NCBI RefSeq assembly: GCF_003334405.1
Contig: NZ_QOWM01000050.1
Source: Escherichia coli
GTDB lineage: Bacteria; Pseudomonadota; Gammaproteobacteria; Enterobacterales; Enterobacteriaceae
DNA length: 1,026 nucleotides
Direction: 5' to 3' (one strand)
Of this stretch, positions 1-1,026 are shown piece after piece. Each line of letters opens with the position of its first letter. Position 1 is the stretch's first letter. The position numbers and the translations under genes are program-made. The notes under the pieces are model-generated. The model was not told where the DNA came from. It was given only the letters and a program-made list of their open reading frames with translations, and ran no database searches.

Positions 1-48
1 GTTTAATACGGTATTCCTGTTCTACATGCACACCCATAACTCACCTTA

Positions 49-549
49 TCAAAATCTGTTCACTACAGCAGTCACCAGAGTTTCTAACTGTTTCGCTGTT
101 TGCTGACAAATATTAAGCGCATCATTAATTTCCTTTCTGAATTCAGGATCGTTAACAATACAAAATCTGTCACCACTAATGATATAATGAACATTGCGTC
201 CGAGTTTGTTAATTTCCGTTTTAAGTCTCCTGATTTCTTTAATCTCATCAGGATAAAGACAGACTTCATTTTTTAACAAAGACTGACGTACACGAATAGC
301 AATTTCTCTGCTCATGCTCATGCCGTGAAGGACAGCATTACGTTTAACAAGTTCTATTTCATGAGGGTAGAGATAAGTGAAAACTGGTTTTGCAGCCTCA
401 TTCTTAACAGGAATAGATACTGGCTTTGTTGGTACATCAAGAACTTTCATTTTTGCGAATACATTTACACTATCAACTCCATATGAAGCTGCATTTACTC
501 TCGCAAGTTCATATTCATCATCATTTAATCTAAAACATACATTTTTCAT
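49..549 (-). CDS. Hypothetical DNA-binding protein with tandem ribbon-helix-helix (RHH)-like repeats; 166 aa from the ATG at 547-549 (track ORF 49..624 uses an upstream TTG)
   Basis: Uninterrupted minus-strand reading frame ending in TGA at 49-51. In-frame ATG at 547-549 is preceded by GGTGA (554-558), a plausible Shine-Dalgarno. I spot-checked the track translation against the sequence (residues GMSMS at 310-324; C-terminal NRF at 52-60). The protein has repeated modules of a short hydrophobic strand followed by an acidic helix (VCFRLNDDEYELARVNAASYGVDSVNVFAKMKVL; VFTYLYPHEIELVKRNAVLHGMSMSREIAIRVRQSLL), each with a G-x-(D/S)-x-S turn typical of CopG/Arc/MetJ-type RHH domains. The gene could not be matched to a named family from memory. 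Confidence 0.6.
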   Translation of the reverse strand: MKNVCFRLNDDEYELARVNAASYGVDSVNVFAKMKVLDVPTKPVSIPVKNEAAKPVFTYLYPHEIELVKRNAVLHGMSMSREIAIRVRQSLLKNEVCLYPDEIKEIRRLKTEINKLGRNVHYIISGDRFCIVNDPEFRKEINDALNICQQTAKQLETLVTAVVNRF

Positions 550-553
550 TCTT

Positions 554-558
554 TCACC
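554..558 (-). promoter_or_regulatory. Candidate ribosome-binding site (GGTGA) for the ATG at 547-549
   Basis: Minus-strand sequence reads ...ctctatGGTGAaagaATGaaaaat...; GGTGA matches the 3' part of the AAGGAGGTGA consensus, 4 nt before the ATG. Confidence 0.35.
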
Positions 559-563
559 ATAGA

Positions 564-598
564 GCCTGCGGCAGGCACAGGCAAAAACATCGTTTTTG
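564..598. promoter_or_regulatory. Pair of inverted repeats just upstream of the RBS: GCCTGC-g-GCAGGC (564-576) and CAAAAAC-atc-GTTTTTG (582-598); candidate operator
   Basis: Both are perfect inverted repeats read directly from the sequence. The CAGGC motif occurs three times: once inverted (564-568) and twice direct (572-576, 578-582). They lie between the candidate promoter and the ATG, where RHH repressors typically bind. Confidence 0.3.
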
Positions 599-611
599 GA
601 CAATCTACTGA

Positions 612-627
612 AAATTGCATGCAATTT
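612..627. promoter_or_regulatory. 16-bp perfect palindrome AAATTGCATGCAATTT; candidate protein-binding site overlapping the candidate -10
   Basis: Positions 612-627 are exactly self-complementary across a GCATGC core. A perfect 16-mer palindrome is unlikely by chance in 1 kb (rough expectation on the order of 0.01-0.02). Confidence 0.35.
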
Positions 628-642
628 CTAGTGGATTGTCTA
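614..642 (-). promoter_or_regulatory. Candidate sigma70-like promoter for the RHH-repeat gene: -35 TAGACA (637-642), 17-bp spacer, -10 TGCAAT (614-619)
   Basis: Hexamers and spacing read on the minus strand. The -35 is a 5/6 match to TTGACA; the -10 is only a 4/6 match to TATAAT and lacks the conserved A at position 2. An alternative is -10 TATAGT (658-663) with a weak -35 TTTATA (682-687, 18-bp spacer). Neither is strong; this is a prediction only. Confidence 0.2.
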
Positions 643-777
643 TCCTGCATTGATTGTACTATATGTGGCGCTGTGCCTAGCTATAAAATCGTCGCTGCAT
701 ATGTCCAGATTTCGTTGCTGAAAGGTTCTTTCGTCTTCGACCATCTGGCAAACGTATAGCTGAAAGATTTGTGAAAG

Positions 778-909: not shown

Positions 910-1026
910 TTAAGCCCCTGCGCGATGATTGCTGACTTCTTTTTCCAGAGCCTTATTAACAAAGGCGTTCAGTGATAAATCTTCTTCCATCGCCATTTCT
1001 GCTACCCGACGATGCAGTTCTGGATC
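910..1026 (-). CDS. 3' end of a gene truncated at the window edge; C-terminal RHH-type DNA-binding domain resembling the C-terminus of HicB-family antitoxins
   Basis: Reverse complement of 913..1026 translates in frame with the window edge to DPELHRRVAEMAMEEDLSLNAFVNKALEKEVSNHRAGA, followed by TAA at 910-912. The pattern P-x-LH-x-x-(hydrophobic)-A-x-x-A-x-E-x-x-SLN-x-(F/Y/W)-(V/I) is the helix-turn-helix half of an RHH fold as I recall it from HicB-type and related antitoxins. The N-terminal part of the protein is outside the window, so the family call is tentative. It is absent from the ORF track because no start codon lies inside the window. Confidence 0.55.
   Translation of the reverse strand, partial: DPELHRRVAEMAMEEDLSLNAFVNKALEKEVSNHRAGA

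Follow-up and report, generated by a model that had tools for sequence, protein, structure and literature searches.

TaxA (Ddp1) of an IncX4 conjugative plasmid is probably built from two RHH modules and a stalk

We analyzed a stretch of Escherichia coli DNA of 1,026 nucleotides (hereafter the window). Our analysis indicates that its ORF at positions 49-549 encodes TaxA (Ddp1), an accessory protein of the relaxosome of a conjugative IncX4 plasmid, and we consider it likely that this protein has an RHH-RHH-stalk layout, that is, three structural units and not four. Both taxA and its function were known before, as was the fact that accessory proteins of relaxosomes are of the RHH kind, so the discovery is a modest one, and TaxA is ordinary apart from its domain arrangement, of which we found no description in the accessible literature.

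The ORF encodes the relaxosome accessory protein TaxA

The gene was delimited from the ORF translation, the NCBIfam match and the annotations of IncX4 plasmids:

49-549, minus strand: taxA (ddp1) coding sequence, 166 codons plus a stop codon at 49-51

The NCBIfam equivalog model NF041451 (DDP1) matched the product with 234.9 bits (E 5.6e-70; curated cutoff, 150 bits), residues 1-165 aligning with positions 1-164 of the 169 in the model. The window DNA is matched at 99.9% by IncX4 plasmids carrying ddp1 and taxC, and the plasmid has an IncX4 replicon, a MOBP relaxase and MPF_T. Both ddp1 and taxA occur as gene names in annotated IncX4 plasmids; ddp1 is the same gene as taxA, and ddp2 the same as taxC (PMC3332091). 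Transposon sequencing of the IncX4 plasmid pHNSHP23 found taxA to be essential for conjugation (bioRxiv 10.1101/2021.08.04.455183). An earlier note on this DNA, made from the letters alone, had rightly seen a single polypeptide of the RHH kind, and both the ORF and the four peptides that it quoted (residues 2-37, 55-92, 95-125, and 128-159) are present, but it had overlooked the TaxA/Ddp1 name as well as the adjoining oriT and relaxase gene.

We place the start of taxA at the ATG at 547-549 on the minus strand, giving a product of 166 aa, because members of the family are 165-169 aa long with an N-terminal MK, the DDP1 alignment starts at TaxA residue 1, and taxA of another IncX4 plasmid is annotated in RefSeq at 167 aa. 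The RefSeq gene call in the best-matching record is 184 aa long, from a TTG start at window position 603, within the oriT inverted repeat.

A Pfam scan of TaxA alone gave nothing at E 0.001 or better, the best matches being Arc (E 0.0025, over the second of the modules described below) and NikA-like (0.25 and 6.4), and phmmer of the single sequence against PDB sequences found only permuted Arc (E 1.2). At a threshold of E 0.1, MobC (PF05713) matched neither TaxA nor any of 29 relatives. A CFAP184 match from Pfam was discarded as meaningless, and so was a snoRNA match from Rfam at E 0.51. The matches to RHH and stalk proteins of the PDB reported below were all obtained with profiles of the family or of its segments, not with the single sequence.

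An RP4-like oriT and the relaxase gene taxC flank taxA

The DNA flanking taxA holds the following features:

1-37, minus strand: beginning of the MOBP relaxase gene taxC, 11 nt downstream of the taxA stop codon, from the annotation of NZ_OP378631
554-558, minus strand: Shine-Dalgarno-like sequence GGTGA, spaced 4 nt from the ATG, read from the sequence
561-666: oriT core block, with the small repeats GCCTGC-G-GCAGGC (564-576) and CAAAAAC-ATC-GTTTTTG (582-598)
599-640: oriT inverted repeat, 21-nt arms with no spacer, 86% complementary
641-648, plus strand: nic-region motif TATCCTG|C, with the nick predicted at 647/648 by analogy with RP4
658-687, minus strand: promoter-like site TTTATA-18-TATAGT, which would read taxA-taxC through oriT (consensus match only)

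Downstream of taxA, all related loci of which sufficient sequence is available continue directly with a PF03432 relaxase. Upstream, at about 50-100 bp, lies oriT, in which the inverted repeat is followed by TATCCTGC and ends 7 nt short of the nick. The nic motif has one match in the window and sits in the block TGTCTATCCTGCATTG (636-651), which is invariant in 7 aligned oriTs. Folded as single-stranded DNA, the inverted repeat reaches a z-score of -5.1; within IncX4 its outer arms GACAATC/GATTGTC are kept, and its inner part occurs as several alleles, each of them self-complementary. In an RK2/RP4 derivative, this layout precedes traJ in the same order and spacing, and it is kept with compensatory changes in the IncX4 alleles and in relatives only 28-35% identical, each with a PF03432 relaxase. 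Contigs L011-L013 end 41-69 nt upstream of taxA and contributed no oriT sequence to this comparison.

A blastn search of the whole plasmid located a second copy of the oriT core block, inverted, at 25222-25327 with a 94% match. R6K is reported to have two oriTs. Promoter-like sites in the window number three against 2.0 expected, which makes them weak evidence.

TaxA probably contains two RHH modules joined by a linker

The first 92 residues of TaxA divide into three segments, listed with their predicted strands and helices:

436-546, minus strand: RHH module 1, residues 2-38, with a strand at about 2-8, helix A at 10-22 and helix B at 28-38 (AF2, hhalign and PDB profile hits)
391-435, minus strand: linker, residues 39-53, the block of lowest pLDDT (61)
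274-390, minus strand: RHH module 2, residues 54-92, with a strand at 54-60, helix A at 62-74, the turn G76-M77-S78 and helix B at 79-91

The helices of module 2 are the most conserved stretch of TaxA. When the family profile was compared with PDB sequences, this module matched AmrZ (E 3.6e-5) and F TraY (E 2.9e-4), the latter in each of its two repeats; in addition, the Pfam TraY domain was matched by 5 of 29 family members, with a best E of 5e-8. Module 1 is the variable, allele-defining part of the protein. Its profile found 2k1o first (E 0.0015), then AvtR, HP0222, DUF1778/TacA-type, KacA and RelB, so that its six best natural PDB matches are all RHH proteins. Two further comparisons tie module 1 to module 2: hhalign of the sub-alignments gave a 94% probability (E 1e-7), and local alignment with 1000 shuffles gave a z-score of 4.25.

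The AF2 monomer model (mean pLDDT 81) has helices at 10-22, 28-38, 62-74 and 79-91, each pair coming after an extended segment, and their lengths fit those of RHH proteins (about 12-14 residues). Conserved core-facing and variable outward-facing positions alternate in both putative strands; in module 1, an alignment of IncX relatives (A1) shows positions 4, 6 and 8, which face the core, to be conserved, the outward positions 3 and 5 to vary, and R7 to be invariant. The earlier note had taken a G-x-(D/S)-x-S turn in these two modules as diagnostic of RHH domains. The established motif is not this one but G-x-S/T/N, which caps helix B; it is exact in module 2 and looser in module 1, where the loop G24-V25-D26-S27 is one residue longer, the helix begins at residue 28, and distant relatives vary. 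The profile searches that the note had proposed bore out its RHH assignment for module 2 (AmrZ, TraY and Arc) and marginally for module 1; MobC gave no match, and the C-terminal part of the protein none to RHH proteins.

How the two strands pair is less clear-cut. We regard it as a plausible reading, though one somewhat short of an even chance, that modules 1 and 2 fold together within one chain as a pseudo-dimer of the TraY/VirC2 kind, with one asymmetric ribbon per chain. Across the family the linker measures 15-31 residues, and it is never shorter than 15 in 26 relatives (alignment A2), which is about the length that single-chain Arc needs (about 15 residues). Furthermore, the outward residues of both strands switch jointly between alleles, as expected in one sheet, and TraY and AvtR, both among the profile matches, are precedents. 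Against this, the AF2 monomer leaves the two strands unpaired, and the intramolecular pairing that the earlier note had considered did not appear in that model. A second AF2 model, in which two copies of TaxA were fused through a 30-residue Gly-Ser linker with a matching 31-row alignment, is of low confidence (pLDDT 56.5) and has strands at 2-5 and 54-60 in pairs of equal length, 4+4 and 7+7, which suggests the alternative that each module pairs with its counterpart in a second chain (1 with 1', 2 with 2'). The same alternative fits the centre of the oriT repeat, which is palindromic in every allele and would suit a symmetric ribbon. It also fits the alignment of residues 48-166 with TraJ and PcfF; since these single-RHH proteins dimerize through their RHH and stalk, module 2-module 2' pairing would be the simpler ancestral state.

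A different question is whether module 1 is an RHH unit at all. If module 2 were the sole genuine RHH, an arrangement found in TraJ, NikA and PcfF, then residues 1-53 would be an unrelated helical extension that does not read DNA. This is what the thin database support of module 1 would favor (NikA-like at E 6.4 and a best PDB profile match at E 0.0015), along with its much lower conservation than that of module 2 and its degenerate appearance in a few relatives, e.g. P0039. We nevertheless judge it improbable, as the hhalign relationship to module 2 and the uniformly RHH identity of its six top PDB hits argue for an RHH unit, and as the helix lengths, the alternation of conserved and variable positions at 3-8 and the invariant R7 fit a DNA-reading ribbon. 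Module 1 also changes along with the allele of the oriT repeat.

The C-terminal part is probably a two-helix stalk rather than two further RHH modules

The remainder of TaxA, which the earlier note had divided into modules 3 and 4 and regarded as degenerate RHH units, corresponds to a third unit, again with predicted helices, and has a conserved motif:

52-267, minus strand: stalk domain, residues 95-166, with helices at 100-125 (window 175-252) and 135-163 (window 61-147)
178-201, minus strand: motif G117-R-N119-V-H-Y-I-I, aligned with G-I-N-I-N-Q-M-A of PcfF

In both AF2 models each of the two putative modules is one continuous helix. In two profile searches the pair matched the stalk of PcfF (6qeq, residues 56-114) with E 7.8e-5 and 5.3e-4, RHH proteins were absent among the matches of the C-terminal profile to PDB sequences, and the stalk prolongs the alignment with RP4 TraJ past the RHH of the latter. 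Within the motif, G117 and N119 are invariant in 29 of 29 family members, and I123 and I124 nearly so. The NINQ patch of PcfF, for which mutagenesis has been reported, binds its relaxase (PMC6514445), and residues 117-124 of TaxA are, by this alignment, the likely relaxase-binding patch.

The internal comparisons likewise did not raise the fourfold repetition claimed for TaxA above chance. Among the six pairs of modules, the shuffled local alignments singled out, apart from modules 1 and 2, only modules 2 and 3 (z 4.27), whose similarity is confined to an 11-residue LYPxEI stretch; the four remaining pairs stayed below z 0.7. With hhalign, modules 2 and 3 reached 21% over 14 columns, a likeness that does not go beyond a motif at the helix start, and every other pair except modules 1 and 2 was below 6%. 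The claim of several RHH modules in one chain therefore stands for modules 1 and 2, which have profile matches and a predicted strand-helix-helix order, and falls for modules 3 and 4, which have one long helix each and no RHH profile similarity.

A chain of four successive RHH-derived modules, in which modules 3 and 4 are degenerate and build a pseudo-tetramer by pairing mutually or with modules 1 and 2, thus appears very improbable to us. It could draw on the fact that every segment opens with a short hydrophobic stretch and then the acidic start of a helix, on the LYP(H/D)EI common to modules 2 and 3, on the superficial resemblance of G117-R-N119 to a G-x-S/T/N turn, and on residues 97 and 131, flagged as beta-bridges in the low-confidence fused model. 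However, residues 100-125 and 135-163 are uninterrupted single helices, pairs 1-3, 1-4, 2-4 and 3-4 have no appreciable hhalign similarity (each below the 6% given above), the LYPxEI likeness weakens in distant members of the family, and modules 3 and 4 together match the PcfF stalk, a two-helix bundle known from crystallography. Finally, a reading of TaxA as an antitoxin or a plain repressor was rejected, as the gene is fixed beside the relaxase gene and oriT across the whole family.

Comparison of TaxA with known relaxosome accessory proteins

The closest known counterparts are TaxA of R6K and of other IncX plasmids (NF041451), which belong to the same family and occupy the same place between oriT and taxC. 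Nothing substantial sets these proteins apart from the one encoded in the window, which represents the IncX4 allele; the transfer genes of IncX4 have less than 60% identity to those of R6K (bioRxiv 10.1101/2021.08.04.455183).

PcfF of the Enterococcus plasmid pCF10 resembles TaxA in having a two-helix stalk behind an RHH. This stalk corresponds to about residues 100-163 of TaxA and includes the GININQ patch, which binds the relaxase PcfG. PcfF differs in having one RHH where TaxA has two, in carrying GININQ where TaxA has GRN(V/I)H(Y/F)II, and in its relaxase, which is PcfG and not a PF03432 MOBP relaxase such as TaxC.

TraJ of RP4/RK2 is likewise the accessory protein of a MOBP relaxase, as are NikA of R64 and the RHH nicking accessory proteins of the MbeC type. 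TaxA residues 48-123 align with residues 7-80 of RP4 TraJ (hhalign, E 6e-5), and the NCBIfam TraJ model weakly matches residues 53-164, although TaxA scores far under the family thresholds of the TraJ and NikA models. Both proteins share the oriT layout, with the gene, the inverted repeat, about 7-8 nt to the nick in TATCCTG|C, and a nicked strand antisense to the gene. TraJ, in contrast, has 123 aa and a single RHH, and TaxA has an extra N-terminal RHH and linker. In 2009, Varsaki and coworkers reportedly treated nicking accessory proteins as an extended RHH family.

F TraY (9f0x) resembles TaxA in having two RHH repeats in one relaxosome accessory chain, both of which align with module 2, but it is without a stalk domain and its partner is a MOBF relaxase. 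VirC2 and AvtR are further single-chain double-RHH proteins, AvtR being the second-best match of the module 1 profile.

Allelic mosaics of TaxA, oriT and TaxC

Among 4-5 alleles, a change in TaxA residues 1-61 goes along with one in the inner part of the oriT repeat. The stalk, for its part, changes its allele when residues 1-150 of TaxC change. The helices of module 2 are identical at 31-32 of 33 positions among three other IncX4 alleles and at 26 of 33 in the more distant L014. These natural mosaics support a division of TaxA into three units, and the co-variation of its segments with the adjacent DNA could be plain genetic linkage.

A bolder interpretation, which we put forward as tentative and rather less likely than not, is that TaxA is a natural specificity cassette, in which a stalk-held dimer would display two separately evolving beta-ribbons. 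The block from module 1 through the linker to the strand of module 2 would be exchanged along with the inner part of the oriT repeat, itself still palindromic, and exchange of the stalk would accompany that of the first 150 residues at the N-terminus of TaxC. Which ribbon allele fits which repeat allele might then sort IncX4 plasmids into transfer-specificity groups, as well as those tiny plasmids that lack a relaxase and copy the IncX4 oriT, and the RHH-RHH-stalk layout would be an undescribed, tetramer-equivalent nucleator of the relaxosome made from two chains.

Proposed mechanism and implications

According to the model that we propose, the beta-ribbons of both RHH modules would recognize the inverted repeat, whose end lies 7 nt from the nic site. 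Binding of TaxA would bend or distort the oriT DNA and would in this way account for the designation "DNA distortion polypeptide". The stalk may use its invariant G-R-N-x-H-x-I-I patch to recruit TaxC, which would nick the plus strand of the window. A TaxA dimer mediated by the stalk, with two ribbon units, could then take the place of a tetramer formed by an accessory protein with a single RHH. As the likely promoter overlaps oriT, TaxA probably also represses its own operon.

The RHH-RHH-stalk layout would provide targets for mutagenesis or inhibition, namely the predicted DNA-reading positions 3, 5, 7 and 55, 57, 59, the predicted relaxase patch at 117-124 and the probable DNA site at 599-640. 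It also leads to a rule, open to testing, on which of the small oriT-only plasmids, such as those of 1.5-4.2 kb, can be mobilized by a particular IncX4 plasmid. IncX4 plasmids, which are major vehicles of mcr-1 and further resistance genes, depend on taxA for their transfer.

Identity of the ORF and contents of the window

The 1026-base window shares 99.9% DNA identity with IncX4 conjugative plasmids of E. coli, and in the best-matching record (NZ_OP378631) the minus strand carries every gene within it. The annotation of this record and our analysis of the DNA upstream of the ORF place the following features:

1-37, minus strand: start of taxC, encoding a MOBP relaxase (annotation)
49-549, minus strand: ORF annotated "ddp1, DNA distortion polypeptide 1" (annotation)
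Between the ddp1 ORF and hicB: non-coding stretch of 360 bp (annotation)
599-619 and 620-640: arms of the oriT inverted repeat, 21 nt each, no spacer, 86% complementary, upstream of taxA
641-648: nic motif TATCCTGC, directly after the inverted repeat
910-1026, minus strand: 3' end of the hicB antitoxin gene (annotation)

Against the curated NCBIfam equivalog NF041451 (cutoff = 150), the ORF product reaches 234.9 bits. The names ddp1 and ddp2 denote taxA and taxC, respectively, and taxA encodes an auxiliary protein for DNA transfer in R6K-type plasmids (PMC3332091); a second IncX4 record annotates the same gene as taxA (167 aa). A transposon-sequencing study scored taxA as essential for conjugation of an IncX4 mcr-1 plasmid (bioRxiv 10.1101/2021.08.04.455183). 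Taking into account the NF041451 score, the equivalence of ddp1 and taxA and this essentiality, the ORF encodes an already known protein with a known role, TaxA, for which a curated family of its own exists.

The RefSeq start in NZ_OP378631 is a TTG at window position 603, within the oriT inverted repeat, which yields 184 aa. Since relatives of TaxA are 165-169 aa long with an MK N-terminus, the NCBIfam model alignment begins at residue 1 of the 166-aa form, and a GGTGA is located 4 nt 5' of the taxA ATG, the ORF coordinates proposed in the earlier note (49-549) are correct. Some database entries, including P0011 and P0016, show a conserved "peptide" 5' of the ATG (window 550-603), which is probably conserved oriT DNA and not coding.

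Two terminator-like hairpins were detected in the intergenic DNA. The first, on the minus strand (900-921), lies immediately past the stop codon of hicB and probably terminates hicAB; the second, on the plus strand (806-827), consists of TGTTACGGCTGAAGCCGTAACG followed by a T-run, with no obvious gene to terminate. In addition, a GC-rich stretch with short imperfect repeats (CTCGCTGCGCTGCGGGGCTTCCGGCGCAAAGCGCCTCC; 835-880) is surrounded by AT-rich intergenic DNA.

TaxA harbors two RHH-like modules and a C-terminal stalk

The earlier note had read the protein as four successive ribbon-helix-helix (RHH)-like modules, and its four peptides are present in the 166-residue product (residues 2-37, 55-92, 95-125, and 128-159). 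Their similarity was analyzed by: (i) pairwise local alignment of these peptides, scored against 1000 shuffles, in which modules 1-2 reached z 4.25 and modules 2-3 z 4.27, the latter match being limited to an 11-residue LYP(H/D)EI stretch, and the other four pairs showed no similarity; and (ii) comparison of module profiles cut from a family alignment (29 sequences, identity down to 19%), which gave 94% probability for modules 1-2 (E 1e-7, 27 columns), 21% over 14 columns for modules 2-3, and <6% for the remaining pairs and for the N-terminal versus C-terminal half. The family is small: at E 0.001 or better, HMMER run over all 1.84 billion cluster representatives yielded 25 clusters, and a word-indexed search yielded 30 proteins. 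Both analyses argue against a four-fold repeat; the RHH interpretation holds for two modules and fails for four.

The RHH-like nature of modules 1 and 2 is supported by profile matches, predicted structure and a canonical turn in module 2. Pfam matches of TaxA itself are weak (Arc, E 0.0025 at residues 55-94; NikA-like, 0.25 and 6.4), and a TraY domain is detected in 5/29 family members (best E 5e-8), falling on module 2 in P0035; other members match FitA-like RHH, RHH_3, Arc, and NikA-like domains. Against PDB sequences, the family profile matches AmrZ (E 3.6e-5) and F-plasmid TraY (E 2.9e-4), both at module 2, while the best natural matches of the module 1 profile alone are all RHH proteins, headed by 2k1o (0.0015) and followed by AvtR, HP0222, DUF1778/TacA-type proteins, KacA, and RelB. 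AlphaFold2 with the family alignment (mean pLDDT 81) predicts helices at 10-22/28-38 and 62-74/79-91, with an extended segment ahead of each pair. Helix B of module 2 is capped by a canonical G-x-S turn (G76-M77-S78), and the module 1 loop is longer by one residue. Core-facing strand residues are expected to be conserved; among IncX relatives, positions 4, 6, 8 and 56, 58, 60 are conserved, positions 3, 5 and 55, 57, 59 are variable, and R7 is invariant, an alternation that would be expected for a DNA-reading ribbon.

Instead of RHH domains, modules 3 and 4 form a stalk. Both AlphaFold2 models show each as one unbroken helix (100-125 and 135-163), and residues 56-114 of PcfF are matched by the family profile (E 7.8e-5) and the C-terminal profile (5.3e-4). 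PcfF, the pCF10 accessory factor of solved structure, combines an RHH at its N-terminus with a two-helix "stalk" at its C-terminus, and its NINQ patch, semi-conserved among accessory factors, binds the relaxase PcfG (PMC6514445). The TaxA segment aligned to this patch is G117-R-N119-V-H-Y-I-I, with G117 and N119 invariant in 29/29 relatives. TaxA residues 48-123 also align with residues 7-80 of RP4 TraJ (E 6e-5, 65% probability; query 100% identical to annotated traJ genes). From module 2 onward, TaxA thus looks like a TraJ/PcfF-type protein that carries an extra RHH at its N-terminus.

The oriT adjacent to taxA

Within the window, the MOBP nic consensus YATCCTGY is matched by the nic motif alone. 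Upstream of traJ, an RK2/RP4 derivative has the same order: gene, inverted repeat, 8 nt, and TATCCTG|C, on the strand antisense to the gene. As single-stranded DNA, positions 558-655 form three hairpins (z -5.1). An alignment of the window oriT with the second copy of its own plasmid and with the copies of a further IncX4 plasmid and of four tiny plasmids revealed two invariant blocks, AGCCWGCGGCAGGC and TGTCTATCCTGCATTG, the latter including the nic motif. The inner part of the large repeat (the repeat at window 599-640, compared with the upstream regions of L008, L010, L014, L015, and L017) has at least four alleles in IncX4-like plasmids and further ones in distant relatives. All of them preserve the dyad symmetry as well as a palindromic, AAAT-rich centre; the changes are hence compensatory. 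The same layout recurs in loci of relatives with only 28-35% identity, each time ahead of a PF03432 relaxase and of type IV secretion genes; the repeats of these loci differ in sequence, share the AAAT-rich centre and lead directly into TATCCTGC.

The oriT core (small repeats, large inverted repeat and nic motif) is present twice on one 31.8-kb plasmid (window 561-666 and L002 25222-25327), in inverted orientation with 94% identity, the second copy being located beside replication genes. R6K has been reported to carry two functional oriTs, and the duplicated IncX4 core looks like their counterpart. Three independent short-read Logan assemblies (L011, L012, and L013) stop 41-69 nt upstream of taxA, as expected because a duplicated oriT breaks the assembly graph. 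Four tiny E. coli plasmids without a relaxase gene (NZ_CP008717, 4237 bp; NZ_CP028575, 1564 bp; NZ_CP128978, 1552 bp; NZ_CP147124, 1408 bp) carry the same repeat and TGTCTATCCTGCATTG block, with both inner-repeat alleles represented; their make-up suggests oriT-only hitchers of IncX4 plasmids. The RK2 helper pUZ8002 (NZ_MN602278), known as non-self-transmissible, carries TATTCTAGAC upstream of traJ, at the place where wild-type RK2/RP4 derivatives have TATCCTGCCC; TATTCTAGAC is a mutated nic site, which fits this phenotype.

Natural mosaics of TaxA, oriT and TaxC

Compared with the window plasmid, locus L009 (TaxA P0004) has identical TaxA residues 1-61 and the same oriT repeat allele, with 40/72 identical stalk residues and a diverged TaxC N-terminus (92, 88, and 76% per 50 residues over the first 150). 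Locus L008 (P0005) has 19/38 identical residues in module 1, 4/8 in strand 2 and a different inner oriT allele, with a 72/72 stalk and a 100% identical TaxC. In the module 2 helices (62-94), the three other IncX4 alleles compared keep 31-32/33 identical residues, and L014, which is more distant, keeps 26/33. The ~45 bp from the repeat to the ATG are also conserved, flanked by variable segments. Between L009 and L010 on one side and L001 and L008 on the other, TaxC differs only in its first ~150 residues, the remainder being about 100% identical, and this differing part directly adjoins the divergent stalk of TaxA. These mosaics support a division of TaxA into three units. They are also consistent with a reading of the inner repeat by the ribbons and a contact between the stalk and the N-terminal part of the relaxase, a co-variation that linkage alone could yield, because the members of each co-varying pair are DNA neighbours and the comparison covered only 4-5 alleles.

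Pairing of the ribbons

The monomer AlphaFold2 model lacks paired strands. In a fused-dimer prediction (two TaxA copies, Gly-Ser linker, matching 31-row alignment), strands formed at residues 2-5 and 54-60 of one copy and 5-8 and 54-60 of the other, with a mean pLDDT of only 56.5. The strands match in length (4+4 and 7+7), a hint, at this low confidence, of like-with-like interchain pairing. An intrachain, TraY-like fold of modules 1 and 2 is allowed, as the linker between them (15-31 residues across the family) would permit folding back. We lean slightly toward interchain pairing, since the proteins to which module 2 and the stalk align together have a single RHH and dimerise, the putative DNA target is palindromic, and the strands of the fused model are equal in length.

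Comparison with known accessory proteins

By its mechanism, TaxA is to be grouped with TraJ, NikA, MbeC, PcfF, TraY, and VirC2, which are RHH relaxosome accessory proteins. A published list of such proteins omits it (PMC5675868), and no description of its domains was found in the accessible literature. TraY is RHH-RHH without a stalk, whereas PcfF and TraJ have one RHH and a stalk, to which TaxA adds a second RHH. The RHH-RHH-stalk architecture combines the TraY and PcfF/TraJ types and appears to be new to the literature; it represents a detail of the known protein TaxA, not a new kind of system.
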